Source: a virus
Virus record (IMG/VR): IMGVR_UViG_3300044974_000806
Length of the DNA stretch: 64,000 nt
Direction: 5' to 3' (one strand)
The first letter of the stretch is position 1. Every line of letters begins with the position of its first letter. Of this stretch, positions 15,980 through 56,092 are shown one piece after another. The position numbers and the translations under genes were made by a program. The notes below the pieces were generated by a model. That model was not told the origin of the DNA. It did no database searches and saw only the letters and a program-made list of their open reading frames with translations.

Positions 15980-16102
15980 TAAAACAAGACTTAATATTTA
16001 TTGTTGAGGAAATTATAATAAATTTTATAAACAAAACGAATACAATTGTTTGGTAAATAACGAATCTTAGTTGTATTTATAACATAATAGAAATACATTT
16101 TC

Positions 16103-18502: not shown

Positions 18503-20694
18503 TGGCTAATATTATAATATATCCCCAAGGTAATGTAGGAAATACGAATCCACAAGTTGTTTTCAATGACGGTTCTACCACATTGCAATTCAATGTTGGA
18601 GTATCGACATTAACTCTTTCATCTAGTACTGTATCTTCAGGTGTTCAATTAGGACCACAAAATGTTGTTGTTTCAGGCGCTAGTGCGCAAGGTACAAGTA
18701 TCTCAGAAGGAAACGTATACGTTGGTGGGGTTAAAATGATTAACTATGACGCAACTTGGGTTGGTCCATCATCAGGAATTGCGGGGGCACAAGGACCAAC
18801 AGGTGCACAAGGTAATACAGGTGCACAAGGTAACAAAGGAGGACAGGGTTCTCAAGGAGCAACAGGAAGTTTAGGAGCGGATGGAGCTCAAGGGCCAATT
18901 GGACCTCAAGGGTCTCAAGGAAATGTTGGTTTCCAAGGAACACAAGGTTTCCAAGGACCAACAGGACCAACAGGTGCTCAAGGTGCTAATACAGGGGCGC
19001 AAGGAAATACAGGAGCACAAGGAGGACAAGGGGCTCAAGGTACCCAAGGTGCGAACACGGGAGCTCAAGGAAACACAGGTCCAACAGGACCAACAGGTGC
19101 TCAAGGGACACAAGGAGCCAATACAGGTGCTCAAGGAAACACAGGTCCAACAGGACCAACAGGTGCTCAAGGGACACAAGGAGCCAATACAGGTGCTCAA
19201 GGACCAACAGGACCACAAGGGGCTCAAGGACCTACTGGCCCGACAGGGGCACAAGGTCCAACTGGACCACAAGGAGCTCAAGGTTCGACAGGTGCTCAAG
19301 GTACACAAGGTGCTAATACAGGAGCCCAAGGTGCTTTAGGTTCTCAAGGAGCACAAGGACCAACAGGACCACAAGGAGCACAAGGTACAACAGGACCACA
19401 AGGTACAACAGGACCACAAGGTGCTCAAGGTACACAAGGGGCTAATACAGGTGCCCAAGGTGCTTTAGGTTCTCAAGGAGCACAAGGTCCAACAGGACCA
19501 CAAGGTGCTCAAGGGACAGGAGGACCACAAGGTACAACAGGACCACAAGGTGCTCAAGGGTCTCAAGGAGGAAGTACAGGAGCCCAAGGTGCTTTAGGTT
19601 CTCAAGGAGCACAAGGTCCAACAGGACCACAAGGTGCTCAAGGGACAGGAGGACCACAAGGGCCAACAGGTATATCAGGAGCTCAAGGTACACAAGGAGC
19701 CAATACAGGAGGACAAGGAAATGTTGGTAATACAGGAGCTCAAGGTGCTGTAGGGTTCCAAGGAGCTGGAGGTCCAGGAGGACCACAAGGTACAACAGGA
19801 CCACAAGGTGCTCAAGGGTCTCAAGGAGGAAGTACAGGAGGACAAGGAAATGTTGGTAATACAGGGGCTCAAGGCGCTGTAGGGTTCCAAGGAGCTGGAG
19901 GTCCAGGAGGACCACAAGGTTCTCAAGGACCACAAGGAGCCCAAGGTTCTCAAGGTGGAAATACAGGTGCTCAAGGACCTTTAGGAAATGTTGGTGCTCA
20001 AGGTGCTGTAGGGTTCCAAGGAGCTGGAGGTCCAGGAGGACCACAAGGTTCTCAAGGACCACAAGGAGCCCAAGGTTCTCAAGGTGGAAGTACAGGTGCT
20101 CAAGGCGCTCAAGGTTCTCAAGGAGACGGTGGAGGTACTTTATCTGGACCACAAGGAGCTCAAGGAGCCCAAGGTGCGGTAGGTACACCTGGTGCAACAG
20201 GAGCCCAAGGTGCGGCAGGTAACAATGGTACAACAGGAGCCCAAGGTGCTCAAGGACCCTCAGGTGGAATACCAACAGGTAATACAGGAGCACAAGGTGG
20301 ACCAGGACCAACAGGACCACAAGGTGCTCAAGGTTCACAAGGACCACCATCAGATAGAAGATTGAAAGATAATATCAAGAAACTTGAAAATGTTATTGAT
20401 ACTGCAAAAAAAATACAAGGGGTTTCTTTTGAATGGGATGAAACTCATGAAAAAATATCAAAACATGAGTATATCCACTTCAAGTCTGCGTTTTCTGGAA
20501 CTGCAATTGGATTCATTGCTCAAGAGATAGAAAAAGTTGTCCCTGATGTTGTATTTACAAGTGACGATGGATTCAAATCGGTTGAATACGGACAATTAGT
20601 TAGTATTGGTGTTGGAGCGGTTCAAGAACAACAAACAAGGATAGAATCTATTTATAAAAGAATAAACAAACTTAAAGAAGTAATAGGTGGCTGA
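18502..20694 (+). CDS. Collagen-like fibre protein 2 with a C-terminal Peptidase_S74 chaperone domain.
   Basis: Paralogous N-terminus MANIIIYP, a long GXY array, and [31 protein letters not shown]. The start overlaps the upstream stop (TAATG). Confidence 0.8.
18780..20340. repeat. Tandem GXY-coding DNA repeat array.
   Basis: Repeated GCTCAAGG / CAAGGTGCTAATACAGG units and near-identical blocks of about 120 nt. Confidence 0.85.
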
Positions 20695-22771
20695 GAATAT
20701 AATTATAACGCCAGGTAGTGGTACAATCGATTTTTACGATTCAGGTAATACTTTAACGACATTAATTGTTGAATCAGGTAGCTTAAAATTTAAAAGAGCT
20801 GGGGGAACATACCTTGCTTTGGATAATACATATCCAAACTTTAAAGTTACTCTTGGTAATTTATATGTAGGAAACGCACTTCAAAATAACTTTGGAAATG
20901 TAATTAACTCTACAGGTTGGTTGGGAAATCCATTACCAACAGGTCCACAAGGTGCTCAAGGTTCACAAGGTGCTCAAGGTTCACAAGGACCCACAGGACC
21001 ACAAGGAGCCCAAGGTAATCAAGGGGCTCAAGGACCAACAGGGGCTCAAGGACCAGTTGGACCAACAGGTGCTCAAGGGCCACAAGGAGCTTTAGGTCCT
21101 CAAGGACCAACAGGTCCTCAAGGAGCACAGGGAGGACAAGGTGCACAGGGAAACCAAGGAGCACAGGGAAATACAGGTTCACAAGGAACTACAGGAGGAC
21201 AAGGAGCCCAAGGAACACAAGGACCGACAGGACCTCAAGGAGCCCAAGGAACTACAGGAGGACAAGGAGCCCAAGGAACACAAGGACCGACAGGACCACA
21301 AGGTGCTCAAGGAACAGGAGGTACCCAAGGAGCAACAGGACCAGTGGGTCCGCAAGGGTCACAAGGACCAACAGGACCACAAGGTGCTCAAGGAACAGTT
21401 GGACCATCACCAACAGGTGCTCAAGGGTCTCAGGGACCTGCAGGAGGACAAGGAGCTCAAGGTCCAAAAGGACCACAAGGTTCACAAGGACCTGTAGGAC
21501 CTCAAGGTTCACAAGGTGCGGTTGGAGCATCACCTGTAGGACCACAAGGGGCCCAAGGAACTGCAGGAGGACAAGGAGCTCAAGGTCCAAAAGGGCCACA
21601 AGGTTCACAAGGACCTGTAGGACCTCAAGGTTCCCAAGGAGCAGTCGGAGCATCACCTGTAGGACCACAAGGAGCCCAAGGACCTGGTGGAGTACAAGGA
21701 GCTCAAGGTCCAAAAGGACCGCAAGGTTCACAAGGACCAACAGGACCTCAAGGTTCCCAAGGAGCAGTCGGAGCATCACCTGTAGGACCACAAGGAGCCC
21801 AAGGACCTGGTGGAGGGCAAGGAGCCCAAGGTTCACAAGGACCTCAAGGTGCTCAAGGTCCAAAAGGACCACAAGGTGCCCAAGGTAATACGGGAGCATC
21901 ACCTGTAGGACCACAAGGAGCCCAAGGACCTGGTGGAGGACAAGGAGCCCAAGGTTCACAAGGACCTCAAGGTGCTCAAGGTCCAAAAGGACCACAAGGA
22001 GCCCAAGGTAATACAGGAGGTTCACCAGGAGGAGCCCAAGGTGCTCAAGGTGGTGGTGGAGGCCAAGGAGCTCCAGGACCTATAGGACCTCAAGGTGCTC
22101 AAGGACCAAAAGGACCACAAGGAGCCCAAGGTAATACAGGAGGTTCACCAGGAGGAGCCCAAGGTGCTCAAGGTGGTGGTGGAGGCCAAGGAGCCCAAGG
22201 AGCCCAAGGAGCAAAGGGTGCTCAAGGGGCTAAAGCGGTACCAGGAGCTCAAGGAGCTCAAGGAGTTCAACCGACATATGCTCAAGGTGCACAAGGTGCT
22301 CAAGGTATTAACAGAGGGGCTGGACCAACAGGTGCTCAAGGAGGAACAGGACCTGACAACCCTGGACCACAAGGTGCTCAAGGACCAGGAGGAGGTCCAG
22401 GACCAACAGGTTCACAAGGAGCAACAGGGTCGCCAGGACCTTCAGATGTTAGATTAAAGAAAAACATTAAAAAAATTGAAAGTCCGTTATCTAAGTTATT
22501 AAAATTAAGAGGTGTTTCATTCATTTGGAATTCCAAAAATCCAAACTTAGAGAATACAAAAGATATTGGTTTTGTGGCACAAGAAATTGCTCACGTTATA
22601 CCTGAATTAGTATTTAAAGAAAATAACGGAAAAGATTTATATAAAGTAAAATATGGTGATATAATAGCACTTTGTTTAGAAGCTGTTAAAGAACATGAAG
22701 AAATGATAAATTCTAAAGAAGAACGATTAAGTAAATTAGAATATAAGGCAAAAGAAAAGGGGTTAATCTAA
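20687..22771 (+). CDS. Collagen-like fibre protein 3 with a C-terminal Peptidase_S74 chaperone domain.
   Basis: GTG start giving MAENIIITP, a GXY array rich in GPQGAQG and GSPGGAQG, and [30 protein letters not shown]. It overlaps the upstream gene by 8 nt. Confidence 0.75.
20935..22440. repeat. Tandem GXY-coding DNA repeat array.
   Basis: Repeated GGACCACAAGG / GTTGGAGCATCACCTGTAGG blocks. Confidence 0.85.
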
Positions 22772-22782
22772 ACCCCTTTTTT
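22755..22782. terminator. Bidirectional rho-independent terminator between convergent genes.
   Basis: AAAA-GGGGTT-aatcta-AACCCC-TTTTTT. The flanking A-run and T-run let it function on either strand. Confidence 0.6.
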
Positions 22783-23640
22783 ATTTATAATATTTTCTAT
22801 TTCTTCTTTGGTGTTGTACAACATTGTTAAGAATCTCGGCCAAATTTCAGGATTAAACTTTTTAATCAATTCAATATAAGTTTTGTAATACGGTTCTTCT
22901 TCACCAGTATTTAATAGTTCAATTGCATCAGGGTAATCTAAAGATATATTTGCAAGTAGTTTAGAAACTCTATTATCGTTAACACCTTCATCATTTATTC
23001 TACGTATAATATCCAAAGAAAGATTTGATAATTGTTCTCCTTTACCAAAATAATTCAAAATATTATTCAAAGATTTTAATAGATACTTTTTATTTTCTAA
23101 GTTTCTTAATCTATTTGCTCTTCTTGAAAACTCATTTACCAAACCTTCAAGGAATTCATTTGTAATTGCCCTGAATTCTATTTTGTGACCCCAATAATCT
23201 TTATCAGATTTCTCATTGTATGTAGATTGATATTTCATATTCATTCTATTTGATTGAGATGGGTCTGTGGCGTGCAACATTTCATGATATATGGTTAAGA
23301 ACAGATTTTTCTTTGAACCATACATTTTCGGATTTAACTGTATTACCAAATCCATAGGGTCTCTTGAACCTTTTGGTCGCGTATCTAACTCACCAAAATG
23401 AGGGTATCTTGGGTTGATATAAATTCTAACTAATGCATCTGTTCCATCAGAAGTTTTAAATTGAAGATGGTCAACTTGAGTTTTTTTATCATACTTTACA
23501 TTTCTATTTGACCATAACTTATCAGTCAACTCCACCAACTTTGTGTAAGTTTCTGGGTCAAACTTGAATCGTTTTTGTTCGGTAAGAACTGAGGATAGTA
23601 TGTTTATAAATTTAATCATCTGTCTAAATCTGTACTCCAA
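22768..23640 (-). CDS. Hypothetical protein with an HExxH motif. Possible zinc metallopeptidase.
   Basis: [15 protein letters not shown] contains HEMLH. It is otherwise unrecognised. Confidence 0.4.
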
Positions 23641-24407
23641 TTAATAGGAATTCTTTTTGGTTTAATTTTTTTCGAATAACTATCAAAAGTATCTACGAAA
23701 GGTATCTGAGCTTTTTTGATGTCTTTAATTCTTTTCATCTCATCACCAATACCTGTAGATAAATAGGCTTGAATCTCATCATCCACCACATTTTCACCAT
23801 AACCCATCCCTGTTATTTTTCTTGAGATAATATCTCGTGTGTTAGGTGAAAGGTTTTCTATGTTAACCATTTGTTTTCTTTTATATATTGGCGACGAAAA
23901 CCATAAACCATGCGCAACTTCATGGAATATAAGTGAAGTGTCTTCACCATCACTTTGGTCTATCCCAATTAAATAAAAGTTTTCAGAACCAACCTTTTCT
24001 CTAATTGTATCAACAACACTAAACATAATAAGGTCGTAGAAGTTAAGGTCGGGGATTTTAGTTATACATGATTCTATTGAGGTACATGGTATATTATAGC
24101 CTGCCCAATCCTCATGATAAGAAAAGTAATCTTTTTTAGTTTTTTCTTTATAGAATTTAACATAGTCATACCATTTAAAACCTTTACCTCTGAATGTGTC
24201 TGAATCTGATTCATAGAACTCTTGGTATCTCATGAATACTCTGGCTCTTAACTTGTCGTCTTTGATAACAAGTGCAAAGATACCAGGTAACATTTCAAAC
24301 AACTCAATCTGAGAAAGGACATTCTTAATGTTTTTTGGCGGAGTTTTTGGAGGGGTAAAACCTCTCTGTTCTTTCAATATGGATAATATTTTATTTGTTA
24401 ATTCCAT
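23616..24407 (-). CDS. Hypothetical protein with an HExxH motif. Possible zinc metallopeptidase.
   Basis: SLIFHEVAHGLWFSSP contains HEVAH. It is adjacent to the other HExxH protein. Confidence 0.4.
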   Translation of the reverse strand: MELTNKILSILKEQRGFTPPKTPPKNIKNVLSQIELFEMLPGIFALVIKDDKLRARVFMRYQEFYESDSDTFRGKGFKWYDYVKFYKEKTKKDYFSYHEDWAGYNIPCTSIESCITKIPDLNFYDLIMFSVVDTIREKVGSENFYLIGIDQSDGEDTSLIFHEVAHGLWFSSPIYKRKQMVNIENLSPNTRDIISRKITGMGYGENVVDDEIQAYLSTGIGDEMKRIKDIKKAQIPFVDTFDSYSKKIKPKRIPINWSTDLDR

Positions 24408-29181: not shown

Positions 29182-29406
29182 ATGAGTAAAGAAATGGTAA
29201 ATGGTCCTGCTCATTATGGTGGAGCGGATAACCCATATGAAGTAATTAAAGTGTGCGAGGCTTGGGATTTAGATAAAGACGCATACCTGTTCAACGTTGT
29301 CAAATACGTTGCGAGGGCTGGTAAGAAAGACGAAACTAAAGAACTTGAAGACCTTAAGAAGGCTGCGTTCTATTTAGACAGAAAAATTCAAAACCTTCAG
29401 AAATGA
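29182..29406 (+). CDS. DUF3310-family small phage protein. The start has been trimmed to MSKEMV.
   Basis: NGPAHYGGADNPYEVIKVCEAWDLD...NVVKYVARAGKKD...AAFYLDRKI matches the DUF3310 pattern common in phages. Confidence 0.5.
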   Translation: MSKEMVNGPAHYGGADNPYEVIKVCEAWDLDKDAYLFNVVKYVARAGKKDETKELEDLKKAAFYLDRKIQNLQK

Positions 29407-29837
29407 TAATTTGGTTTACAGGACAACCTGGTTCAGGAAAGACAACAATTTGTAAAAGAATTCTTTGGGACAAGCCAGGTGTTTTCCATATTGATGGTGA
29501 TGACCTAAGAGACCTTTTTGATAACAAAGATTATTCAGAGTTAGGTAGAAGAAAAAATGTTGAATTAGCTCAACAAATTGCCCATTACCTCCACAAAAAA
29601 GGTAAAGACGTGGTTGTCTCATTGGTTTCTCCATACAAAGACCAAAGAGATAAGTTCAAAGAAAAGATTGGTCATAATATGTTTGAGGTTTATGTCCATA
29701 CTTCTGAAATAAGAGGACGAGAAGATTTCTTTGTAAAGGAATATGGACAACCAACTGAAAACTACTTGGATATCGACACAACAAACGAAAGTGTTGAAGA
29801 ATCCATAAAAAAAGTTTTAGATTACGTAAAAAAATAA
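29403..29837 (+). CDS. cysC: Adenylyl-sulfate (APS) kinase-like P-loop kinase, CysC family.
   Basis: IWFTGQPGSGKTTI (Walker A), HIDGDDLRDLF (compare LDGDNxR) and VVVSLVSPYKDQRD (compare ISPY..DR). The protein is about 144 aa, slightly shorter than canonical CysC. Confidence 0.6.
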   Translation: MIIWFTGQPGSGKTTICKRILWDKPGVFHIDGDDLRDLFDNKDYSELGRRKNVELAQQIAHYLHKKGKDVVVSLVSPYKDQRDKFKEKIGHNMFEVYVHTSEIRGREDFFVKEYGQPTENYLDIDTTNESVEESIKKVLDYVKK

Positions 29838-29840
29838 TTT

Positions 29841-30596
29841 ATGATTGACTTAACTATATTTGAAAAACTTAAAACATCATACCAAGGGGCTTATCCATTT
29901 CCTTATGTTGTGATTGATAACTTCCTACCAGAATTTATTATGACCAAATGTCTTGAGGAGTTACAGAATCATAAGGAGTGGAGTAGTAACAAAATGGAAT
30001 GGGTTGAACCATTCCAAGTAAATAAATTCTTTATCCCTGATGAAAAAGATGATATCGAATATGTTAAATCAAAAGTGCCGATTACATCGCTTATACTTGA
30101 TTACTTGAACACCCCTGAATTTCTGAAACATTTGGAGAATTTGACAGGTATTAAGAAATTATTTAGAGACCCTTTATTAATGGGTGGAGGTGTTCACAAG
30201 ATAAATAAGGGTGGGAAATTATCCATTCATATTGATTACAACAATCATCCAATCACGAAACATAGGAGAAAATTAAACTTATTAATTTATCTTAATAAAG
30301 ATTGGGATAAAAATTGGGGGAGTAATTTAGAACTTTGGGATAAAGAACTGACAAAAAAAGTTATAGAGGTTGAACCAATATTCAACAGAGCTGTTATTTT
30401 TACAATAGATGGTGCACCACACGGACATCCACACCCATTGAACTGTCCTGAAAACGTTTCAAGGTATTCTTTGGCGTTGTATTATTTTATTGATGAAGAA
30501 CCTGAAGAAAAACATTCAGTGATTTTTTATAGAAACGATGAAGTTGGTATTACGGATAATAATAACAGTTATGATAAAATTTTTAAAACAAACTAA
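29841..30596 (+). CDS. Prolyl-4-hydroxylase-like 2OG-Fe(II) oxygenase.
   Basis: P4Hc-like N-terminus YVVIDNFLPEFIMTKCLEEL, HxD in SIHIDYN, RKLNLLIYLNKDWDKNWGSNLELW (compare R.T.L.YLN..W..GG.L), and a distal His in GAPHGHPHP. Confidence 0.6.
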   Translation: MIDLTIFEKLKTSYQGAYPFPYVVIDNFLPEFIMTKCLEELQNHKEWSSNKMEWVEPFQVNKFFIPDEKDDIEYVKSKVPITSLILDYLNTPEFLKHLENLTGIKKLFRDPLLMGGGVHKINKGGKLSIHIDYNNHPITKHRRKLNLLIYLNKDWDKNWGSNLELWDKELTKKVIEVEPIFNRAVIFTIDGAPHGHPHPLNCPENVSRYSLALYYFIDEEPEEKHSVIFYRNDEVGITDNNNSYDKIFKTN

Positions 30597-30598: not shown

Positions 30599-30997
30599 AT
30601 GAAAATCCATGTTGAAGGAGACCCAAAGCTAAAGAACAATTCAGGTAAACAATATTCAATGTTTATCGGAAGATGGCAACCATGGCACAATGGACACAAA
30701 TGGTTAATTGACCAAAGATTAAATGAAGGTAAGAATGTTCTTATTTGTATAAGAGATATTGAACCAAATGAAAAGAATCCATTTACTGCGGAGGAGGTTG
30801 AGGCAAACATTAAACGTGAGTTGTGGCAACTAATTGGAAATGAAAGAGTTAAGGTTATGATTATACCTGACATCGAATCTGTCAACTTTGGTAGGGGAGT
30901 TGGTTATGATATAATTGAACACATACCACCACAAGAAGTTTCAGATATATCTGCAACAAAGATTAGAGAACAATTAAAAGAAGAAGGTAAATTATGA
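30599..30997 (+). CDS. HxGH-motif nucleotidyltransferase, NMNAT / cytidylyltransferase-like.
   Basis: FIGRWQPWHNGH resembles the GRFQPFHxGH motif of archaeal-type NMN adenylyltransferases and cytidylyltransferases. Confidence 0.55.
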   Translation: MKIHVEGDPKLKNNSGKQYSMFIGRWQPWHNGHKWLIDQRLNEGKNVLICIRDIEPNEKNPFTAEEVEANIKRELWQLIGNERVKVMIIPDIESVNFGRGVGYDIIEHIPPQEVSDISATKIREQLKEEGKL

Positions 30998-33723: not shown

Positions 33724-35142
33724 GTGAGAAAAATAATTAACGAAAGCGGATTAAGAGATATTTCAGCCTTAAGTAAAAGATACCCTAAGGCTGAAATATA
33801 TTTTCACCAAGACTTAGATGGTGTTACAACTGCGATTGCAATGAAGAAATACCTTGAGGACAATGGTATTGATGTTGTCGGTGCACACGTAATTCAATAT
33901 GGGGACAAAGAATTTTCAGTTAAGAAAAACGATGCTCAAGGAGATACAATGCCAGTTCTTGTTGATTTTGCTCACGGTAAACCAATGTTTGTTATTCATA
34001 CAGACCATCACGATAGACAAGCTGGAGCTGAGGATACAAAATCAACATCATTTAGACCTTCTCGTTCAAATGTTGAAACCATATCTCAAGTTGTTTCGCC
34101 AAAAGACTTATTTCCCTCATCAGACATTTTACTGATTAGCACTGTCGATTCAGCAGATTTTGCCAAATACAATATCACACCTACTGAGGTTGTGAACTAT
34201 CTTTATAGGGTTGATAAAGAAAAACCACTACAAAAGAATAAGATGTTGCTTGGATTGGTAATAAATAAATTATTATTAGCTTTCAAAAACAAACCAGGAT
34301 TTTTAGAAGGATTAGTTATGGATTCAGAGCCATCACTTTTATCCATCTTGAATAATATTAAATCTTGGATGAAAAACACAAACGCGGCATCACCAGAAGA
34401 ACTACAAAAAAATGCAGAAGAATACGCAAAACAAATGAAGGACTATCCGACCGTCTCGGACAACATTATATTCCAGTACGGTGGAGGTAGCATGTTTAAG
34501 CCTGGGTCTTATGACAGGTATACCCCATTCAGAAATAATCCTGAAGCAGACTTTCTTATTATGGCATGGCCGATGGGTCTCGTTCAAGCGTCTTGTAACC
34601 CTTTTAAGAAAGAAAGAGAACTTAAAGGTGTTAATCTCGGGGAAATAGCTCAAGAAGTTTTATCCAAGTGGGAAGACCAATTAAAAACAAAAACAATTCC
34701 ACTCTCAACTATTAAATGGGTTAGCGAGACAAGTGTTGGACCTGAGAGTATTGGTTTTACATTTAAAGATTTTGATGCTCTTTATGGTGGAAAAATTATG
34801 TTCATGGAAAATGGAGAACAAATTTTAAATCACATTAAAGATATGATGGAAACACCATTTAAAGATTTAAGTGAGGAACACAGACAAATGTTAGATAAGA
34901 TTGGTATCAATGCTTGGGACTTAATTCAGTCAAACTCAGGGGGACACAAATGTATTACTAACATATCAGGACTTAATTACTTAGGAAGAAGTACGAGACC
35001 GCCTCAAGGTCAATACAGATACAATCCTGATAAAGATGATTCACCATCTGTTAAGTTTACCAAAATGATTGCAACACAATTCCAAAAAGTTTTGAAAGAA
35101 AAAATCGAACAATCAAAACAATCTGTTGAAACAACTAAATAA
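33724..35142 (+). CDS. DHH-superfamily phosphoesterase-like protein.
   Basis: GTG start. YFHQDLDGVTTAIAM resembles DHH motif I/II and VIHTDHHD resembles the DHH motif. The fit is partial. Confidence 0.45.
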   Translation: MRKIINESGLRDISALSKRYPKAEIYFHQDLDGVTTAIAMKKYLEDNGIDVVGAHVIQYGDKEFSVKKNDAQGDTMPVLVDFAHGKPMFVIHTDHHDRQAGAEDTKSTSFRPSRSNVETISQVVSPKDLFPSSDILLISTVDSADFAKYNITPTEVVNYLYRVDKEKPLQKNKMLLGLVINKLLLAFKNKPGFLEGLVMDSEPSLLSILNNIKSWMKNTNAASPEELQKNAEEYAKQMKDYPTVSDNIIFQYGGGSMFKPGSYDRYTPFRNNPEADFLIMAWPMGLVQASCNPFKKERELKGVNLGEIAQEVLSKWEDQLKTKTIPLSTIKWVSETSVGPESIGFTFKDFDALYGGKIMFMENGEQILNHIKDMMETPFKDLSEEHRQMLDKIGINAWDLIQSNSGGHKCITNISGLNYLGRSTRPPQGQYRYNPDKDDSPSVKFTKMIATQFQKVLKEKIEQSKQSVETTK

Positions 35143-35153
35143 GTTTTTTATAT

Positions 35154-35714
35154 TTGTGTATGGCAAAGAAAATATACACAAAAACAGGAGACCAAGGTCT
35201 AACTTCATTATTGGGGGGTACTAAAGTACCAAAGAACGATTGGAGAATTGAGGCATATGGTACGGTAGATGAATTGAATTCATTTATTGGTCTTTTAGGG
35301 GACAAATTACAAAGTAACAACTCTTCATTTTCATTCAGTTTTTTAGAGTTAGAAAAAATTCAAAACAATTTATTCAAAATTGGTTCTGTTTTGTCTTATG
35401 ACATGACCGCTGATTTAAAAATTGAACTACCAAATGTAACCGAAGCGGACGTTAAGAATTTGGAAGACTGGATGGATACAATGGAGTTAACATTACAGCC
35501 TTTGAAAAACTTTATCATACCAGGTGGACACGAGGCGGTTTCATTGGCTCATGTGTGTAGAACAGTATCAAGAAGAGCGGAAAGAAATACCGTACAAGCA
35601 ATTCAATATCCAATCATTATGAAATACATCAACAGATTGAGTGATTACTTCTTCATGTTGAGTAGATATATTGCTTCAGAGGTTGGAGTAGAGGAAAAAA
35701 TTTGGAAAGGTTAA
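35154..35714 (+). CDS. ATP:cob(I)alamin adenosyltransferase, PduO-type (Cob_adeno_trans family).
   Basis: The N-terminus KIYTKTGDQGLTSLLGGTKVPKNDWRIEAYGTVDELNSFIGLL closely follows the PduO/MMAB consensus IYT+TGD.G.TSL..G.RV.K...R.EAYG.VDELNS.IG. Confidence 0.7.
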   Translation: MCMAKKIYTKTGDQGLTSLLGGTKVPKNDWRIEAYGTVDELNSFIGLLGDKLQSNNSSFSFSFLELEKIQNNLFKIGSVLSYDMTADLKIELPNVTEADVKNLEDWMDTMELTLQPLKNFIIPGGHEAVSLAHVCRTVSRRAERNTVQAIQYPIIMKYINRLSDYFFMLSRYIASEVGVEEKIWKG

Positions 35715-36079
35715 TCCAAGATATATTCAACTGAATCACCAGCCTGAATGTTTTTGATTTCACAGGTACCACCTTCGACTTCTAATACTATATTACCATT
35801 ACCACAATAAGAAGGACAGTCAAACTCGTCATCACAAGGAGGGCAACTATGATGAATATTCACAATCACGTTATTTTTAATAACAATGATGTCTAATGGT
35901 ATTAAACAATTTTTCATCCAAAAACATTGTTTCTTACCTCCCATCAAAAACAATAAACCATTAAAGGTTTCATCGAAAGTTTTCCCCATCATTCCAATTG
36001 ATTGGGATTTTTCATCGATAAGTGTTTTGACTTTAAATATATTTTTATTAATTTTGACTTTCATACTAAATAAATACAA
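35711..36079 (-). CDS. DUF192 (COG1430) family protein.
   Basis: GMMGKT...GLLFL...CFWMKNCLIPLDIIVIKNN resembles the DUF192 core GLM.R...GMLF.F....FWMKNT.IPLD. Confidence 0.45.
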   Translation of the reverse strand: MYLFSMKVKINKNIFKVKTLIDEKSQSIGMMGKTFDETFNGLLFLMGGKKQCFWMKNCLIPLDIIVIKNNVIVNIHHSCPPCDDEFDCPSYCGNGNIVLEVEGGTCEIKNIQAGDSVEYILD

Positions 36080-36498
36080 TGGAAAAGAAAAGGTACGTAG
36101 GTGTTATGGTTAAATGTAAAGATAAGATACTTCTTTGCAAAAGAAATAACCAAGGTTCATTCCCAGGTATGTGGTCCATCCCTGGCGGAAAGTTGGAAGA
36201 TAATGAAACCACACAAGAGGGGGCAAAAAGAGAATTCTTAGAGGAAACCGCTGTAGACATTTCTGATATGGACTTACAATTCATTGGTTTAATACCAAGA
36301 CATACTCGTGACGGTAAGAAGGTTAAAGGTCTTATGTATGTGTATCTTTTGACTGTTGAAAATGAAATCGAACCTGATTTGGAAAAAGCGATTGACGGTA
36401 ATGAACATACTGAATGGGATTATTTTCCATTAAGTGGAATCAAACCTGAAAATAGCGGTGAATATATGTATAAACTTGCAGAAATTATATTAAAATGA
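36079..36498 (+). CDS. NUDIX hydrolase.
   Basis: NUDIX box GGKLEDNETTQEGAKREFLEETAV (Gx5Ex7REUxEExGU). Confidence 0.8.
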   Translation: MEKKRYVGVMVKCKDKILLCKRNNQGSFPGMWSIPGGKLEDNETTQEGAKREFLEETAVDISDMDLQFIGLIPRHTRDGKKVKGLMYVYLLTVENEIEPDLEKAIDGNEHTEWDYFPLSGIKPENSGEYMYKLAEIILK

Positions 36499-36616
36499 TT
36501 ACAGTAGTATTGTCATTAATTGGTGTTGTTATATTTGTTGGAGTATATGGATGGATTTCAATCAACAGACAAATAAAAAATATGATTGATGATATTGATT
36601 TTTAAAAAAAATGTTC

Positions 36617-36624
36617 TATCTTTG
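36617..36624 (+). promoter_or_regulatory. Bacteroidetes-type -7 promoter element TATCTTTG.
   Basis: Matches the TAnnTTTG consensus of Bacteroidota sigma-A promoters. An upstream TTTG lies at the expected spacing. Confidence 0.45.
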
Positions 36625-36625
36625 T

Positions 36626-36700
36626 AGAACTTTTGGGGGAAATGGAGATATTTATATGTTCATGTCCGAAAGGACGAACACCCCAAAATAAGTTTCATAA
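36626..36700 (+). ncRNA. Candidate small structured RNA (promoter-proximal hairpin transcript).
   Basis: TTTTGGGGG ... CCCCAAAA long-range stem enclosing a GTCC-gaaa-GGAC hairpin. It lies directly downstream of a promoter motif and has no ORF. Confidence 0.25.
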
Positions 36701-36723
36701 AAAAAAGATTTGATTGTTTGAAA

Positions 36724-36731
36724 AAACATTC
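36724..36731 (+). promoter_or_regulatory. Bacteroidetes-type -7 promoter element TACCTTTG.
   Basis: It is part of a roughly 40 nt element TTTGATTGTTT...AAAACATTCTTACCTTTGTGAAAC that is duplicated at 37150-37195. Confidence 0.45.
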
Positions 36732-36738
36732 TTACCTT

Positions 36739-36795
36739 TGTGAAACGAAAATCCCATAAGAAAGTTTTCGAGAGAATTCAAACCTTGTGGGATTT
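36739..36795 (+). ncRNA. Candidate small RNA or terminator hairpin.
   Basis: AAATCCCA ... TGGGATTTTTT stem followed by a U-run, about 10 nt downstream of a promoter motif. Confidence 0.25.
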
Positions 36796-36828
36796 TTTAT
36801 CTGAAGTTCTTTAATATAAAAATATATC

Positions 36829-36899
36829 GCGAGATAGTAGCAGCGGTAGCTCGCAAGGCTCATAACCTTGAGGTCGGGGGTTCGATTCCCTCTCTCGCA
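36829..36899 (+). tRNA. tRNA with anticodon CAT (Met, or Ile if lysidinylated).
   Basis: Acceptor stem GCGAGA/TCTCGC, anticodon stem-loop CAAGG-CTCATAA-CCTTG and T-arm GGGGGTTCGATTCCCTC. No 3-prime CCA is encoded. Confidence 0.75.
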
Positions 36900-36986
36900 A
36901 CTAAGAATAGGTTGACTACGTTAGTCGTAAAATTACGGTTCCCTATTTTTTTTTACAAAGAGTTTGACAAACTGAAAATGTTTTTC

Positions 36987-36994
36987 TATCTTTG
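36987..36994 (+). promoter_or_regulatory. Bacteroidetes-type -7 promoter element TATCTTTG.
   Basis: TAnnTTTG match with an upstream TTTGACAAACTG. Confidence 0.4.
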
Positions 36995-37172
36995 TAGTCC
37001 AATCGGGTAAAACTGATTGGTGTCTTTGACAAACAGACGAATTAGCCTGTCCTATAAAGTGTAGGAGGTCAACAAGATAGTTGGATGATACTATCAAGGA
37101 AGAATGAATTCGTTTAAATCATCAGTCAAAAAAAAAGTTTCTAAAAAGTTTGATTGTTTCCCAAAACATTCT

Positions 37173-37180
37173 TACCTTTG
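37173..37180 (+). promoter_or_regulatory. Bacteroidetes-type -7 promoter element TACCTTTG (duplicate of the 36724 element).
   Basis: Same roughly 40 nt promoter element as at 36706-36745. Confidence 0.45.
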
Positions 37181-37186
37181 TGAAAC

Positions 37187-37292
37187 AAATGAAGGAGACA
37201 GGTTGTAAAGATTCCTGTTGTTGATTATGAGACCTTTGGTTGATTATGAGACTTACTCAGGTTGTAAAGATTCCTTTCTCCTTCATTTTTAA
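37187..37292 (+). ncRNA. Candidate small RNA forming a long imperfect hairpin with internal direct repeats and a U-run.
   Basis: Outer inverted repeat AAATGAAGGAGA / TCTCCTTCATTT encloses two copies each of CAGGTTGTAAAGATTCCT and TTGATTATGAGAC, followed by TTTTT. It starts about 7 nt after a promoter motif. Confidence 0.3.
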
Positions 37293-37319
37293 AAGTACGT
37301 TCTTTGAATTAAAATATTG

Positions 37320-38165
37320 GCGGTCTATAGTCGTTAAATAAACCATGAAAGTGGTATAAAGTGACTTAGTTTGGTTGAACTAAGTTGCGGCTTCCGAAAG
37401 GGAGCTCGAGTAGACAAGCGAGATATCGTTAGACCTTTAGTACCGAGGGTGACACTGTAGGGAAAATGGTTTGACGACCAAGCGATGTGGGTCGTTTGGT
37501 TGAGGTGGGAACACCAATAAGAATAACTCGTAGAACTGTTGCAAGACATATGGTCATCCAACCATACGATTGCGGAGTTCAATATCAGGGTGGTCTTAAA
37601 ATCGAAAGATAAGACCTCGTACAGGTGGTGCTGTTGTAGTCCTTAACTTGACTCTACCAAGAGTTCTGTTATGAAGATGACCCAAAATATCGAGGCAGGG
37701 ATGTCTCAGAGAGTAGTTTAGTATTCTGTTGTTCAAAAGACGACGGAGCTGGCGACGGGCCACTACTTTCTTAATCCACAAACCACTTACTTTGTTAATT
37801 TTGGTTTAACAAAACTATAAATCAGATAAAGGAAAAGTGCTCGTCAGTTCTGGATGACAGGTCACTACATAGTCGTGAGATGTTCACGGCCATGAAGGGT
37901 CCCAAGCCCGACATGATTTTCACCAAAGTTCTCTAATCTCGCAAGGATTAATTGGGGTGGCAACCTCGAAGAGTGATGAGTAATGAGAGAGTGATTCAGA
38001 ACTTAAGGATTGGTTAATCTAATTGACCGTGACTGAGAGTTACTACTCAAAAGGTAGTGGAAATCGGAGGAAATAATAATCTCCCGTAAAGATTCTCAAA
38101 TTAAGGTGTATTCTCAGCCTGAATGCCAAATTGACCCTGACTATTTCCATAGTTGGGGTTTTTTG
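37320..38165 (+). ncRNA. Large GC-rich structured non-coding RNA candidate of about 850 nt. Possibly a GOLLD- or ROOL-like phage ncRNA.
   Basis: About 50% GC against about 33% in the surrounding DNA. No ORF exceeds 82 aa on either strand. There are many local stems (for example GACGACC...GGTCGTT and CTTCC-gaaa-GGGAG). It ends in GGGGTTTTTT and is adjacent to a tRNA in a phage, which is the typical context of GOLLD and ROOL RNAs. Confidence 0.4.
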
Positions 38166-38178
38166 TTATTATTAATTT

Positions 38179-39096
38179 ATGAATGTAATTATGGTAGCTG
38201 AGGACATCAATAAAGATGGCTCATTCAAACAGACAAAGGGGGAAATCATGTGTACGGTTTCCAATCTTGCATTCATAAAACATTATTATCCTGACTTTCA
38301 CACAATACTTTTTGTAGATAAATTTACCAGACCATATTATGAATCGTTCGGTATTACCGAACTGTTCGATGAGGTTAATGATATCATGCTGAACGAACAT
38401 GTTGATATCGATAAAAATGTGTTTTGGGCGGCGGGTAAACTAATGGCTCAAAGAATAACACCAGGACCAACATTAACTATGGATTTGGATTTTTGGGTTC
38501 GAGCTGACATATCAATGTTTGGAATTTTTGATTCAGATATTTCTTGTCTTTGGGTTGAAGAAATAAATGAAAAGTATTACCATAGACATGAGGATGCATT
38601 AAAAAACTCAAACTTAAAAATTGAATGTGATTGGGACCAATATGGAATAAATGTTTCGTTTCTTTATTTAAAAGATGAAGAATTTAAAAATACATATTGT
38701 GATTTATCAATAGAATACATGAAATCAATGTACGGTAAAATACCAAACAATCTTTCATTTGAAGATAAAACAAAATACATTTTATTTGCGGAACAATATC
38801 TTTTGAATCAAATTGCCAAAAAATATGATAAAAAAGTTAAAGTTCTTGTTGATGATTTTTATGACATTACCAATTTGAAACATGTTGAATCCATTGGTGT
38901 TCATATGAAAACTTGTCCAAAATACATTTATCATATGGGTAACCACAAACACGATTACAGAGCAAAGAATAGTTTTGCCCTTGAAGGAATAGAGATATTT
39001 TATAAAACAACCACATCGGTAATAACCGATGATAGGTTTATTAGAGTAATAAATAACATTTATAACAAATCAGAATATGAAGGGTGTTTTTGTTAA
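38179..39096 (+). CDS. Hypothetical protein, paralog A. Possible GT-A-like glycosyltransferase with a DxD motif.
   Basis: A hydrophobic strand followed by DLD (LTMDLDFWV). It shares FWAAGK and MDLDF blocks with the next gene. Confidence 0.45.
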   Translation: MNVIMVAEDINKDGSFKQTKGEIMCTVSNLAFIKHYYPDFHTILFVDKFTRPYYESFGITELFDEVNDIMLNEHVDIDKNVFWAAGKLMAQRITPGPTLTMDLDFWVRADISMFGIFDSDISCLWVEEINEKYYHRHEDALKNSNLKIECDWDQYGINVSFLYLKDEEFKNTYCDLSIEYMKSMYGKIPNNLSFEDKTKYILFAEQYLLNQIAKKYDKKVKVLVDDFYDITNLKHVESIGVHMKTCPKYIYHMGNHKHDYRAKNSFALEGIEIFYKTTTSVITDDRFIRVINNIYNKSEYEGCFC

Positions 39097-40027
39097 TTGG
39101 ACAAAACCATACGAAGAAAGAAAACGTTTGAGGGGGCACGCCTTCAAAATACACAGAGAACAGTTATCTGAGGAATATACAACAACAGATGAAGAGTTGT
39201 TATTCACAATATTATCTGTTGGATACTGGAAAAAATTTAACGGTCCTACCAAACTTTATACGGATAAAAAAGGTTTGGCTTACTACGCCAAGAATAACAT
39301 GTTGGACTTATGGGATGAAATTGATACTCATACCCTGGAGAACTATAAAGACATTGACCCAGCTCAGTTTTGGACATCAGGTAAATCGTATTGTATAGGA
39401 AAAGAACAAGTGCCATTTTGTTTTATGGATTTAGATTTTATGGTTATGGAGAAATTACCTCAATGGGTTTTTGAGTCTGAAGTAACCATACCATACTGGG
39501 AAATACCAAGAGGATATTATTACCCTAATGAGGACCAATACAAAGAAATAAAACATTGGCAACCCCCATCTGACTATTCATATAAGATGATGATTCCAAA
39601 CACATCTTTTTTATACATTGGGAGTGACAAAGTCCAATCCGAATACCTCAAAGACCATCTCGAGGCGGTTGACACCAAAAATGAAATACCTGAATGGTTT
39701 TGGTTAGTTACTGACCAAGGTTTATTTGGACAAGTTCTTAGGAGGTTCAATGTCAAAACTAATACTCTTACCGATAAAGTATTTTTGTCTGACCACGAAG
39801 GTTATGAAGGTAAAGTCGGTGAAGCAACTGGATTTTACTATTTGACCAACGCGGATTATTCCAAAGACAACCTTAAATGGTGGCACGTATGGACAAGGAA
39901 AGTTTTATACAATCAAGACGAAAATGTTAGAGTTTCTGACTGCAAAGAGTTCTACCAACGAATTATGGATGAACTACCTAAGTACAAACACATACTAAAT
40001 AACCCTCGTTTGGTGAGGTATAGATAA
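39077..40027 (+). CDS. Hypothetical protein, paralog B of 38179..39096.
   Basis: FWTSGK and FMDLDFMV align with FWAAGK and TMDLDFWV of the upstream gene. This looks like a tandem duplication. Confidence 0.45.
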   Translation: MKGVFVNWTKPYEERKRLRGHAFKIHREQLSEEYTTTDEELLFTILSVGYWKKFNGPTKLYTDKKGLAYYAKNNMLDLWDEIDTHTLENYKDIDPAQFWTSGKSYCIGKEQVPFCFMDLDFMVMEKLPQWVFESEVTIPYWEIPRGYYYPNEDQYKEIKHWQPPSDYSYKMMIPNTSFLYIGSDKVQSEYLKDHLEAVDTKNEIPEWFWLVTDQGLFGQVLRRFNVKTNTLTDKVFLSDHEGYEGKVGEATGFYYLTNADYSKDNLKWWHVWTRKVLYNQDENVRVSDCKEFYQRIMDELPKYKHILNNPRLVRYR

Positions 40028-40632: not shown

Positions 40633-41790
40633 TTATTTTTTCCAAGAGTTTCTATCATAATCCCCAAGTTCAAATACTTGGGCATAATTGTAATAAACCA
40701 TGTCTGCAATATTTTGATTATATAATGACCTCCAATCAAAATTTGTATAATCAGAAGAATTTTTTTTAATTAAACAATCTTTTTCCAATTCTCCAGACTT
40801 ATAATACTCTGTATGTCTAACATGAGGAATCTTTAAATAATCATCTAACATAGACTCAACCCTAATGATGTAATCTGGTTTTCTAATTGTGTGGTCATAA
40901 CATGGAAAACGTTGAACATCGTGAATTTCTTCATATAAATAAGAGTATAAAAATTGTTCAAATTGTTCAGATGTCCATTGTTCTTTATCTGTAGATGCCT
41001 TGAAATAAGACACTATCATGTTATATGGGTTCCTTAATGTTGTTATAAAAGATAATTTTTCGTGCCCATAACAGAAAATACAATGATGATGATTAGGGTT
41101 TTCCCTTTGATAAGGTTTCAAAAAACCTCCCTCTTGTTTGTAAAGTTCAAATCCCAATTTTGGTAGTATGAATGACGCTGAAGTTGAGGCGGTTTTTGGA
41201 GGTGTCCACGCGAATATTTTTTGAGTTAAATTCGCTAAAACTAAATTTTCTTTTGGGTATTGTATCTTTTCTAAAGACACCCAATTTACTAAAGAATGAC
41301 GAACCCCCTCTGTAATTGGGGTCACCCTATGTAGTATATCTGAAAAAAATATATGTAAATTACCAACTCCCCTTTCAAATTTAATTTCATTTCCGTTTAC
41401 ATCTTTAAATTCTAAATCACCACCTTCGTATTCATTGTTTAATTGTATAACAATTGAACAATACCTATTTTTATTTTTATTATTATCAGAATCAATATGC
41501 CAACCATAATATTCTCCGACGCCATATTGTGTAAGTTGATATCTACTTAATCCTGTTAACGTATTATCTTTTATTTTTATGTTTTGATTTAAAGTATTTT
41601 TTAATCTATTATCGATTGAATCAATAGTGTCTATAAATGCAACAGAAGATTTTCTCAAATTGTTATCTAATTTACCACCATCAATTAACGCTGGTTCCAA
41701 TTTTAACTTTGACAAGTATGTGTCCAATATTTTTTTACATTCATCTTCTGATAAGAAATTTTTTATTGTAATTGGTTTGCGGTCCTCCAT
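40633..41790 (-). CDS. Bifunctional-looking protein with an N-terminal P4H-like 2OG-Fe(II) oxygenase domain fused to a C-terminal sulfotransferase domain.
   Basis: N-terminal half: FLSEDECKKILDTY, HIDSD (HxD), RYCSIVIQLNNEYEGGDLEF and LHRVTPITEGVRHSLVNW (distal His and RxS). C-terminal half: PPKTASTSASF (5-prime PSB-like PKTGTTS motif) and LRNPYNMIVSYF (3-prime PB-like RNPxDRxxS motif). Confidence 0.6.
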   Translation of the reverse strand: MEDRKPITIKNFLSEDECKKILDTYLSKLKLEPALIDGGKLDNNLRKSSVAFIDTIDSIDNRLKNTLNQNIKIKDNTLTGLSRYQLTQYGVGEYYGWHIDSDNNKNKNRYCSIVIQLNNEYEGGDLEFKDVNGNEIKFERGVGNLHIFFSDILHRVTPITEGVRHSLVNWVSLEKIQYPKENLVLANLTQKIFAWTPPKTASTSASFILPKLGFELYKQEGGFLKPYQRENPNHHHCIFCYGHEKLSFITTLRNPYNMIVSYFKASTDKEQWTSEQFEQFLYSYLYEEIHDVQRFPCYDHTIRKPDYIIRVESMLDDYLKIPHVRHTEYYKSGELEKDCLIKKNSSDYTNFDWRSLYNQNIADMVYYNYAQVFELGDYDRNSWKK

Positions 41791-43287: not shown

Positions 43288-44139
43288 TTACGTTGTGTAG
43301 TAATCAGGTTCGTAGTTGTTATACCTATTATCTATTTTCATTTTTTCTGTGAAGTTTAACTTAGGCTCATCCGAATAAAACGTACAGTAAACCTCGTTAA
43401 TTTTAACCCAGTCTTGAAACTCGGCGTGACCATCGTCTTCATATGTTAATACTATATATTCGTCTCTTAATCTGTCAAAATCATATTCGGATAATGCGGG
43501 ATATTTGGTGTTTTCGTTTAATGAGAAATCACCATTAATTGCTCTATTCCATGTTACAACAAGATACGCATCATATTTAAGTTGAGTTGTTTCAACATCA
43601 CCATTACCATTACACTCCCAACATTCATTTTTTCCATTGTCACAATTATCACAACTTAAATAACCTTCTCCACCACAATCAGGACATTTATCGTTGCCAG
43701 TACCCTCACAAGCTTCACAATCTTCCCATTCTCCGTCACCCATTTCTCTACCATCTCCATCACATTCAGGACATGTGACCTCACCACTACCATCACACGT
43801 CTCGCATGTAATTTCACCTCTATCACAGTATTCACAATCAAGTTCACCCTCACCATCACATGAATCACATGTTTTTACGTATTCAGTACCTTCAGTTGTG
43901 AATACGTTGGCAAACCCTAATGATGAAATCATAGTGTCACCAACATTAAATTTACCTGTTGTTTTAAATGAATATATGTAAAAGGTTAACTTAACAATAT
44001 TATCAGGACCCAAATACTTGAAGTAATCGGATTGTTTTTGCATTACAGGGATTAATCCGTCATAGACCTCTTGAGGTGTTTCTGATTTAGGAATTAATTC
44101 CGATAATTTTACTGTTAATTTTTTTAATTTTTCGTCCAT
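43288..44139 (-). CDS. Hypothetical protein with eight or more CxxCxGxG zinc-finger repeats (DnaJ CR-domain-like).
   Basis: CDSCDGEGELDCEYCDRGEITCETCDGSGEVTCPECDGDG...CEACEGTGNDKCPDCGGEGYLSCDNCDNGKNECWECNGNG. Confidence 0.5.
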   Translation of the reverse strand: MDEKLKKLTVKLSELIPKSETPQEVYDGLIPVMQKQSDYFKYLGPDNIVKLTFYIYSFKTTGKFNVGDTMISSLGFANVFTTEGTEYVKTCDSCDGEGELDCEYCDRGEITCETCDGSGEVTCPECDGDGREMGDGEWEDCEACEGTGNDKCPDCGGEGYLSCDNCDNGKNECWECNGNGDVETTQLKYDAYLVVTWNRAINGDFSLNENTKYPALSEYDFDRLRDEYIVLTYEDDGHAEFQDWVKINEVYCTFYSDEPKLNFTEKMKIDNRYNNYEPDYYTT

Positions 44140-48383: not shown

Positions 48384-48691
48384 GGAACCCATTTAAGACG
48401 TGGTCCAAACAAGAGGCTCATTTCACTTCGTGGTTACTTAAAGACGTATTTTGGTGTTTAAAACTACCCTTATTTGCAACTTTAATGGTTATACCAACAA
48501 CATTACTTACACTATACATTCTATTCAAAGAACAGGACAACAGAGATACAAATTTAATACTTTCAAGTTGGGTATTCATGAACATATTTTGGATGTTACA
48601 TGAACTACAGAATTTTCCTTATTGGCCTGTACAGGTATGTATGATTCTCGGAGGACTCGCAGTTATTAATTCTGTAACAAGAAACAAATAG
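48374..48691 (+). CDS. Small multi-pass membrane protein.
   Basis: Three hydrophobic segments. Confidence 0.35.
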   Translation: MGIRNPFKTWSKQEAHFTSWLLKDVFWCLKLPLFATLMVIPTTLLTLYILFKEQDNRDTNLILSSWVFMNIFWMLHELQNFPYWPVQVCMILGGLAVINSVTRNK

Positions 48692-53392: not shown

Positions 53393-53404
53393 TGATATTT
53401 ATAC

Positions 53405-54388: not shown

Positions 54389-54393
54389 TCTTT

Positions 54394-54591: not shown

Positions 54592-54648
54592 TTCCAATTC
54601 TTTTTTTATCGAAAAAAATAATTTATATTTGCGTAAAATTATGATACG

Positions 54649-56080: not shown

Positions 56081-56092
56081 ACCTATAAATAC

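Follow-up and report, generated by a model that had tools for sequence, protein, structure and literature searches.

Three predicted Fe(II)/2-oxoglutarate oxygenases of distinct families in a phage genome and their possible association with sulfation and glycan tailoring

In the present study, we analyzed a 64,000-nucleotide stretch of viral DNA (IMG/VR record IMGVR_UViG_3300044974_000806; hereafter, the window), which carries three open reading frames (ORFs) for predicted Fe(II)/2-oxoglutarate (2OG) oxygenases, designated P1 (29841..30596, + strand, 251 aa), P2 (40633..41790, - strand, 385 aa), and P3 (45609..46121, + strand, 170 aa). The original prediction, which was made at the level of motifs, regarded the three proteins as paralogous prolyl 4-hydroxylases (P4Hs) acting on the collagen-like tail fibers of the same phage. 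All three ORFs were found where they had been placed, and their best reading is that of intact, active-looking predicted hydroxylases carried as accessory genes of the "moron" or auxiliary metabolic gene (AMG) type. They are most likely not collagen P4Hs. The explanation that we prefer, with a probability of approximately 0.4, is that P1, P2, and P3 are accessory tailoring hydroxylases that act with a sulfation and glycan module of the phage.

The link to sulfation was graded as strongest for P2, in which the oxygenase is fused to a sulfotransferase-like domain, and as moderate for P3 and P1. Among the enigmatic "cyanophage-type" 2OG oxygenases, at least one is physically tied to such a domain, which leads to a hydroxylate-then-sulfate hypothesis. 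The presence of multiple 2OG oxygenases in aquatic phages is already known, and the oxygenase-sulfotransferase fusion is the less ordinary element.

Enzyme class and family relationships of the three oxygenases

The assignment of P1, P2, and P3 to the P4H/prolyl hydroxylase domain (PHD)-like branch of Fe(II)/2OG oxygenases was confirmed by Pfam and PDB profiles and, in the case of P3, by a fold model. Regarding P1, a COG3751/PHD-OGFOD1-like protein (PF13640 and PF13661) that is present as an accessory insertion, matches were obtained to 2OG-FeII_Oxy_3 (6.7e-17) and 2OG-FeII_Oxy_4 (1.9e-6), and its profile was closest in the PDB to a hypoxia-inducible factor (HIF)-type PHD (6ey1, 9.5e-9), followed by OGFOD1 (5.8e-6) and EGLN1/2 (approximately 1e-5 to 1e-4), with P4Hs scoring lower. 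The N-terminal domain of P2 (aa 1 to approximately 190; 41221..41790, - strand) is of the cyanophage-type phrog_61/PKHD kind (2OG-FeII_Oxy_3, 2.3e-14; phrog_61, 2e-34). Its best solved relative was the P4H of Bacillus anthracis (BaP4H, 7e-8), followed by PKHD (3dkq, 6e-6)/PiuC, and it was near the PRK05467 Fe2+-dependent dioxygenase models of NCBIfam (1.9e-16, below the cutoff). Owing to a shallow alignment in this region, AlphaFold2 (AF2) modeling of the domain gave low confidence (pLDDT <50).

P3 is a minimal oxygenase of the small orphan family phrog_13746, to which no Pfam model is assigned, and its sequence matches were marginal (Pfam, E=0.15; phrog_13746, 1.4e-5), with no PDB match in a sequence search. 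Its AF2 model, which was built with 28 homologs, was a double-stranded beta-helix (DSBH) with a pLDDT of 92, and Foldseek returned 276 PDB matches at E <= 1e-3, with 2OG oxygenases throughout among the matches listed. The top structural match was the collagen prolyl hydroxylase vCPH of PBCV-1 (E=1.7e-6, TM 0.68); AspH, a Shewanella PKHD, PiuC, and the Pseudomonas putida P4H solved with EF-Tu followed within approximately one order of magnitude, and an algal P4H, BaP4H, WelO5, and AlkB were in the same range (approximately 1e-6 to 1e-5).

The HxD…H iron triad was retained on careful alignment and was invariant within the homolog family of each protein. The invariant residues were H130, D132, H194/H196, R208, and S210 in P1, H98, D100, H154, R164, and S166 in P2, and H96, D98, H148, R159, and S163 in P3 (73 homologs). 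Such invariance of the catalytic residues within each family places these motifs far beyond chance. Two other shared features were only partly borne out. The RxS anchor for 2OG that had been ascribed to all three proteins was present in P1 (R208-x-S210) and P2 (R164-x-S166), whereas that of P3 is RxxxS (R159…S163), and the P4Hc-like N-terminus F(L/I)xEEE(C/R)xxI has no literal fit in P1, which reads NFLPEFIMTKC.

A lysine that anchors the C5 carboxylate of 2OG is the signature of collagen-type P4Hs (Lys493 in human C-P4H alpha(I)), and an arginine at this position is that of PHDs and PKHDs. The family alignments placed an Arg at the anchor of P1, P2, and P3 alike, and R164 of P2 fell on the Lys position of BaP4H in a HMMER alignment (…GVRHS… vs. 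…GEKWI…). Therefore, one defining feature of collagen-type P4Hs is replaced in all three proteins, and their membership in the collagen-P4H family is not established.

The proposal that the proteins are three paralogs with diversified specificity did not survive pairwise comparisons. BLASTP gave E=1.3 between P1 and the P2 N-terminal domain and E=5.9 between the latter and P3; the value of 0.004 between P1 and P3 was confined to a 28-residue HxD segment, and a profile-profile comparison of these two families yielded a probability of 16% over 41 aligned columns. By sequence, P1, P2, and P3 are three distinct families of the P4H/PHD-like branch, which a motif-level reading had merged and which are now separated.

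The P2 N-terminal domain matched 313 phage records, mostly from cyanophages, and this raises the alternative that P1, P2, and P3 are generic 2OG-consuming AMGs that modulate host 2OG/nitrogen signaling or serve in AlkB-like repair or modification of nucleic acids. Genes for 2OG-Fe(II) oxygenases are numerous in 14 of 16 cyanomyoviruses, for which 2OG/NtcA or DNA repair roles were proposed (Sullivan et al., 2010; PMC3037559), and phage S-SCSM1 carries 24 such genes, the functions of which were "not specifically investigated" (PMC9602691). AlkB-family structures are also among the fold matches of P3. However, neither AlkB nor TET/JBP was the closest match of any of the three proteins, cyanophage hallmark genes were not encountered within the window, and the sulfotransferase fusion and the gene neighborhoods described below favor a specific tailoring role; we regard the generic alternative as highly unlikely. 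The window resembles cyanophages and marine phages in having several divergent PF13640-type copies in one genome that are scattered among accessory genes and in the direct phrog_61 membership of P2. It differs in that one copy is fused to a sulfotransferase-like domain, one is paired with a paralog of that domain, and one lies in a kinase/nucleotidyltransferase operon, as well as in the derivation of P3 from a small orphan family without a Pfam model. Phage sulfotransferase and adenosine 5'-phosphosulfate (APS) kinase genes have themselves been listed among viromic AMGs.

A sulfotransferase-like domain fused to P2 and encoded upstream of P3

The C-terminal domain of P2 (aa approximately 190-385; 40633..41220, - strand) and the standalone ORF45014 (45014..45586, + strand), which ends 22 nt upstream of P3, are paralogs (BLASTP, 4e-11), and neither had a Pfam match of its own. 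All PDB matches to the profile of the P2 C-terminal domain were sulfotransferases, with alignments over RNPY…S, in which RNP..S fell on the 3'-phosphate-binding (3'-PB) motif of SULT7A1. The AF2 model of this domain, which has a divergent sulfotransferase fold, was confident (pLDDT 85-95), and its top five Foldseek matches were all sulfotransferases. The loops corresponding to motifs for binding 3'-phosphoadenosine 5'-phosphosulfate (PAPS) are TPPKTASTS/APERTGSRK, of the 5'-phosphosulfate-binding (5'-PSB) type, and RNPY…S, of the 3'-PB type; P2 carries PPKTASTS (5'-PSB-like) and RNPY....S (3'-PB-like). In the family alignment A2, T15, R68, N69, P70, and Y71 were invariant, and S76 was nearly so.

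An exhaustive search (E <= 1e-3) expanded this family to 1,451 cluster representatives, nearly all of which are standalone proteins of approximately 200 aa. Four of 12 family members matched Sulfotransfer_1 (3.9e-4), and among 41 distant members, 11 matched Sulfotransfer_2 (5.3e-8) and 11 matched Sulfotransfer_1 (1.7e-6), sets that may overlap; the close relatives recovered by the homolog search carry no precomputed Pfam annotation. Domain fusions were found to GT9 (heptosyltransferase) in two members and to DUF5672 in one. Because of the PDB profile matches, the AF2 model, the size of the family, and the Pfam matches of its distant members, we read the P2 C-terminal domain and ORF45014 as divergent, probably carbohydrate-type sulfotransferases. 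A large family of approximately 200-aa sulfotransferase-like proteins is thus brought to light, the copies of which in the window and most close relatives are missed by Pfam.

The pair of ORF45014 and P3 is retained in the related loci L089 and L090 (50% and 77% identity). A 209-aa gene located upstream of a sulfotransferase-like gene in these two loci was considered as a detached oxygenase half of P2 and was rejected, since BLASTP identified it as a second sulfotransferase-like paralog. Therefore, a "Rosetta-stone" split is not provided by these loci, and the fusion is specific to one lineage.

The kinase-P1-nucleotidyltransferase block

P1 lies in a tightly packed run with a kinase, a nucleotidyltransferase, and a DNA methylase (29403-31848; gaps of 3, 2, and -4 nt), and a terminator-like hairpin is found 3' of the methylase. 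The kinase (29403..29837, + strand, 144 aa) is an APS-kinase-like P-loop protein, for which a Pfam APS_kinase assignment is on record. It matched TIGR00455 at 1.4e-18; the score of 67 bits is below the cutoff of 138.7, and the match spans only residues 1-100 of 144. Its leading PDB matches were APS kinases or the kinase domains of PAPS synthases (best, 3e-11), with two weak adenylate kinase matches near the bottom of the list. The kinase is a probable supplier of PAPS for the sulfotransferase-like proteins.

The small HxGH nucleotidyltransferase encoded at 30599..30997 (+ strand; CTP_transf_like; phrog_10255, 3.4e-14) resembles nicotinamide mononucleotide adenylyltransferase (NMNAT; 1e-5 in the PDB), and the kinase and nucleotidyltransferase are conserved partners that are fused in phrog_10255. 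On account of the HNGH motif, the two were considered as a minimal PAPS synthase; this candidate was rejected, the nucleotidyltransferase being closest to NMN adenylyltransferases. An accessory cluster downstream (33724..36498) encodes a DHH-family protein, a PduO-type cob(I)alamin adenosyltransferase (Cob_adeno_trans), DUF192, and a NUDIX hydrolase, and, taken together with the NMNAT-like gene at 30599, it could point to NAD or cofactor salvage instead of sulfation for that gene.

Sibling contigs place the sulfotransferase-like family in the same block. The order in L007 is sulfotransferase-like, APS-kinase-like, P1, and nucleotidyltransferase, and that in L091 is sulfotransferase-like, APS-kinase-like, and nucleotidyltransferase, with P1 missing from its slot. 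In L092, the nucleotidyltransferase directly follows the kinase without P1.

Genomic contexts of P1 homologs

P1 homologs are widespread, with 1,933 matches in a protein search and at least 583 bacterial genomes. Neighboring genes were clustered for 80 bacterial loci (1.13 Mb in total; flanks of +/-8-10 kb were used throughout the homolog loci), and 59 of the 80 had one or more neighbors of the polysaccharide type (GT2, GT4, flippase, ABC exporter, Wzz, epimerase, or methyltransferase) or a sulfotransferase as a neighbor. The most common were GT2 (21 loci), the Polysacc_synt flippase (17), a multi-pass membrane protein adjacent to the homolog (16), and an ABC exporter ATPase (15); GT4s, a methyltransferase, Wzz/Wzc, and an epimerase also recurred. 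A bona fide Pfam Sulfotransfer_1 protein (4e-24) was encoded in nine of the 80 loci. All 14 sulfotransferase ORFs in these nine loci were on the same strand as the P1 homolog, and eight were within 300 bp of it. The sulfotransferase-linked loci were mostly cyanobacterial, and Cyanobacteria are described as a phylum known for sulfated exopolysaccharides (PMC8205485). A literature search with partial coverage returned no P1-type protein from a polysaccharide cluster that had been characterized.

The closest non-identical relatives of P1 (approximately 60% identity) are located on phage contigs of 140-317 kb (L107-L109; match at 8001..8750), which are of the T4-like or jumbo type. The P1 slot in these phages overlaps the stop codon of a 5'-3' exonuclease gene and is followed by DnaB, with gp32-like, ribonucleotide reductase, and gp25 genes nearby and uncharacterized ORFs of approximately 2,580 aa and 1,600-1,700 aa flanking it. 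P1 is a mobile accessory gene in several contexts, none of which is collagen-linked.

The location of these relatives in a replication or early module also bears on the possibility that the three proteins are host-takeover hydroxylases, which would modify non-collagen proteins of the host (or phage), such as EF-Tu or uS12, and thereby retune translation. The profile of P1 is closest to HIF-type PHDs and OGFOD1, the JGI family name for P1 is "Rps23 Pro-64 3,4-dihydroxylase Tpa1-like", and the relatives of P2 and P3 include BaP4H (5v7y), which modifies EF-Tu, and the P. putida P4H-EF-Tu complex (4iw3). P1 shares PF13640 and PF13661, the Arg-x-Ser anchor, and its best PDB matches with the HIF-PHD and OGFOD1-Tpa1 (COG3751) enzymes. 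However, this argument consists of homology alone, with family names having been transferred by COG, and it leaves the sulfotransferase fusion and the 59 polysaccharide-context loci unexplained. Moreover, OGFOD1/Tpa1 has two DSBH domains, in contrast to the single 251-aa domain of P1, and the bacterial relatives of P1 are found in polysaccharide clusters and not in translation-related loci. A host-takeover role is possible, and we consider it doubtful.

Collagen-like fibers and the hydroxylation proposal

The window encodes three collagen-like tail fibers (16103..18502, 18502..20694, and 20687..22771, + strand), and this part of the original prediction was sound; each of the proteins combines Collagen (PF01391) with Peptidase_S74 and matches tail-fiber PHROGs. 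The repeats that had been put forward as substrates were fewer than described. GHPGAQG, which was given as occurring approximately 12 times in fiber 1, was counted nine times and in fiber 1 only, and the "many" Y-position prolines amounted to only 19 of 481 Gly-X-Y triplets, namely, 13, 3, and 3 triplets in fibers 1, 2, and 3 (8.0, 1.8, and 2.0%), with X-position Pro at 21-36%. The Y positions were mostly occupied by Gln and Thr, which indicates that the triple helix of the fibers does not depend on hydroxyproline (Hyp).

The rival reading that follows from the fibers is that one or more of P1, P2, and P3 act on collagen as prolyl or lysyl hydroxylases, which would modify X-Pro-Gly or X-Lys-Gly in the phage's own fibers and thereby stabilize their triple helix or provide sites for glycosylation. 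The best structural match of P3 (vCPH) and the best solved relative of P2 (BaP4H) are in its favor, as are the nine GHPGAQG repeats and the eight Y-position Lys residues (GPKG) of fiber 3. There is also a viral precedent in the mimivirus collagen lysyl hydroxylase L230 (PMC5802723, PMC9546862), which, similar to P2, is a bifunctional protein with a 2OG hydroxylase and a group-transfer domain in a virus with collagen-like proteins. L230 differs in being a PLOD-type lysyl hydroxylase joined to a glycosyltransferase, the predicted partner domain in P2 being a sulfotransferase, and it was not matched by P1, P2, or P3 in sequence or fold searches.

Gene contexts speak against this reading. Runs of at least 10 Gly-X-Y triplets were not detected near the 80 bacterial P1, nine viral P3, or three large-phage P1 homologs; with the window's own lineage and L091 set aside, 98 homolog loci in total were without collagen-like repeats. 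The sibling phage L091 encodes a collagen fiber (3..2315, + strand, 221 triplets) and nevertheless has no P1 between its kinase and nucleotidyltransferase; this fiber consists almost entirely of (G-A/G/S-Q)n, with Pro at 18 X and 2 Y positions, and, since it is nearly Pro-free, such fibers tolerate a near-complete loss of Pro. Within the window, P1, P2, and P3 lie 7-23 kb from the fibers and are interspersed with sulfation and glycan genes. A 585-aa gene located between the fibers and P1, when used as an anchor for relatives, identified one distant syntenic lineage only (L101-L106), in which the fiber cassette and the kinase-P1-nucleotidyltransferase block were both missing from their slots (+/-10 kb). 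This joint loss is the sole observation that may be read as a co-occurrence of fibers and P1, and, coming from one lineage, it is suggestive.

The three proteins were also compared with the collagen-type enzymes C-P4H, Cr-P4H, vCPH, and BaP4H. P1, P2, and P3 share the DSBH fold (by a model for P3 and by sequence profiles for P1 and P2), the HxD…H triad, and a P4Hc-like N-terminal helix with them, and collagen-like proteins are encoded in the same genome. They differ in the Arg anchor in place of the collagen-type Lys, the rarity of X-Pro-Gly in the fibers, and the lack of co-localization with collagen in the sampled homolog contexts; furthermore, the fold matches of P3 to AspH, PKHD, the P. 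putida P4H solved with EF-Tu, and AlkB equal that to vCPH. Hydroxylation of the phage's own collagen-like fibers by a phage P4H received no positive support, and these differences, L091, and the sulfation and glycan linkage count against it; we judge the collagen reading to be unlikely. No study on a phage P4H acting on collagen-like fibers was found in a literature search with partial coverage. Hydroxylation of collagen by these proteins, if real, would represent a novel modification of phage virions, but the evidence argues otherwise.

A related alternative is post-translational decoration of the virion by the phage itself, with the Thr/Gln-rich fibers as the most plausible target. Hydroxylation, as Hyp or hydroxylysine at the nine GHPG and eight GPKG sites or on a glycan substituent, would be followed by sulfation or glycosylation, and the fused and adjacent sulfotransferases, the PAPS-generating kinase, and the GT2/Glf toolkit of the phage would sulfate and/or glycosylate fiber positions. 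If this were true, P2 would be an undescribed bifunctional hydroxylase-sulfotransferase, and the fibers would bear a sulfated, glycosylated coat like mimivirus fibrils or BclA. We regard self-decoration as quite unlikely.

The region of the fibers has several further features. The GC content of 16001..22000 was 0.46-0.49 against approximately 0.32 elsewhere, and the Gly/Ala/Pro/Gln-rich repeats give rise, on both strands, to long ORFs in other frames that are spurious. Directly after the fibers, two ORFs at 22768..23640 and 23616..24407 (- strand) each contain an HExxH motif (IFHEVAHGLW in one), which suggests zinc metalloproteases; neither had a Pfam or PHROG match. Size- and position-matched ORFs accompany the fibers in L001, L004, and L091, and no homolog of the pair was present in L101-L106.

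Proposed role in sulfation and glycan tailoring

According to the tailoring explanation, each oxygenase would hydroxylate a C-H position of its substrate at the expense of O2 and 2OG, the APS-kinase-like protein of the phage would raise the PAPS pool, and the fused or adjoining sulfotransferase-like partner would move sulfate from PAPS onto the new or a neighboring hydroxyl. The most likely candidate substrate is a glycan, or a non-sugar substituent linked to a glycan, that belongs to the host envelope or to a phage glycoconjugate. A glycan is favored because the GT9 fusions of the sulfotransferase-like family and the bacterial polysaccharide context of P1 fit it best. The window also contains a glycan toolkit (48666..61165), which comprises an FkbM methyltransferase, two GT2s, a UDP-galactopyranose mutase (GLF, 4.7e-77), a cytidylyltransferase (CTP_transf_like, 2.6e-13), BKACE (7e-62), a hexapeptide acyltransferase (Hexapep, 7.5e-22), and a DegT aminotransferase (3e-20), with GT2 at 8.7e-16. 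The DegT-family ORF is 198 aa long and matches the first quarter of a 360-position profile and, thus, is possibly truncated or split. If phages drive the sulfation of envelope or virion glycans, this could have consequences for receptor masking and superinfection exclusion in aquatic bacteria.

Several points weigh against this explanation. Sugars already bear hydroxyls, and hydroxylation before sulfation is not obviously needed. The oxygenase-sulfotransferase fusion is rare, being present in two clusters only and in a single lineage, and L089 and L090 have two sulfotransferase-like genes and no oxygenase at the position of P2. P3 stands without a sulfotransferase-like neighbor in L092 and L093, and no sulfation genes were found near the P1 homologs in the replication module of L107-L109. 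Furthermore, the kinase is short, scores below the curated NCBIfam cutoff, and has no recognizable lid, and, therefore, PAPS synthesis by this protein is only putative; the nucleotidyltransferase beside P1 resembles NMNAT and not ATP sulfurylase.

A combination of hydroxylation, sulfation, and PAPS supply is known from cyanotoxin biosynthesis, in which a 2OG hydroxylase, a sulfotransferase, and an APS kinase are co-encoded, as in CyrI/CyrJ/CyrN for cylindrospermopsin and SxtN/SxtO for saxitoxin (PMC2885083). The same activities are predicted to be co-encoded in the phage. Unlike the cyanotoxin clusters, the phage has no nonribosomal peptide synthetase/polyketide synthase or toxin scaffold genes, its hydroxylase and sulfotransferase-like domains form one polypeptide in P2, and its sulfotransferase-like proteins form a divergent family with a relationship to Sulfotransfer_2 (carbohydrate type).

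Other features of the window

A megablast search of 24 kb against 50,697 phage records returned a tRNA match only and no close relative, and PADLOC gave only generic "2OG" domain matches. Two DUF6734 genes (38179..40027, + strand; Pfam, 9.5e-8 and 4.6e-6) lie beside a Band_7 gene and P2 and were counted with the glycan toolkit, and a DUF6734 gene is located directly 5' of the P3 homolog in L093. The ORF at 43288..44139 (- strand) encodes a Cys-rich protein with many CxxC/CxxCxGxG repeats and weak matches to the DnaJ central domain and BSD2, with acidic small ORFs adjoining it, and a DnaJ-like J-domain protein is encoded at 7949..8875.

The window also carries a GOLLD RNA (Rfam RF02032), a large structured non-coding RNA borne by the phage, at 37709..38120 (+ strand), which scored 335 bits (gathering score, 150; E=2.6e-95) and aligned over the full length of the model (positions 1-416 of 416). 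This RNA is located in an ORF-free gap (approximately 36500..38180), approximately 800 nt downstream of a tRNA-Met (36828..36901), and this gap is preserved in the sibling contigs L001-L003.

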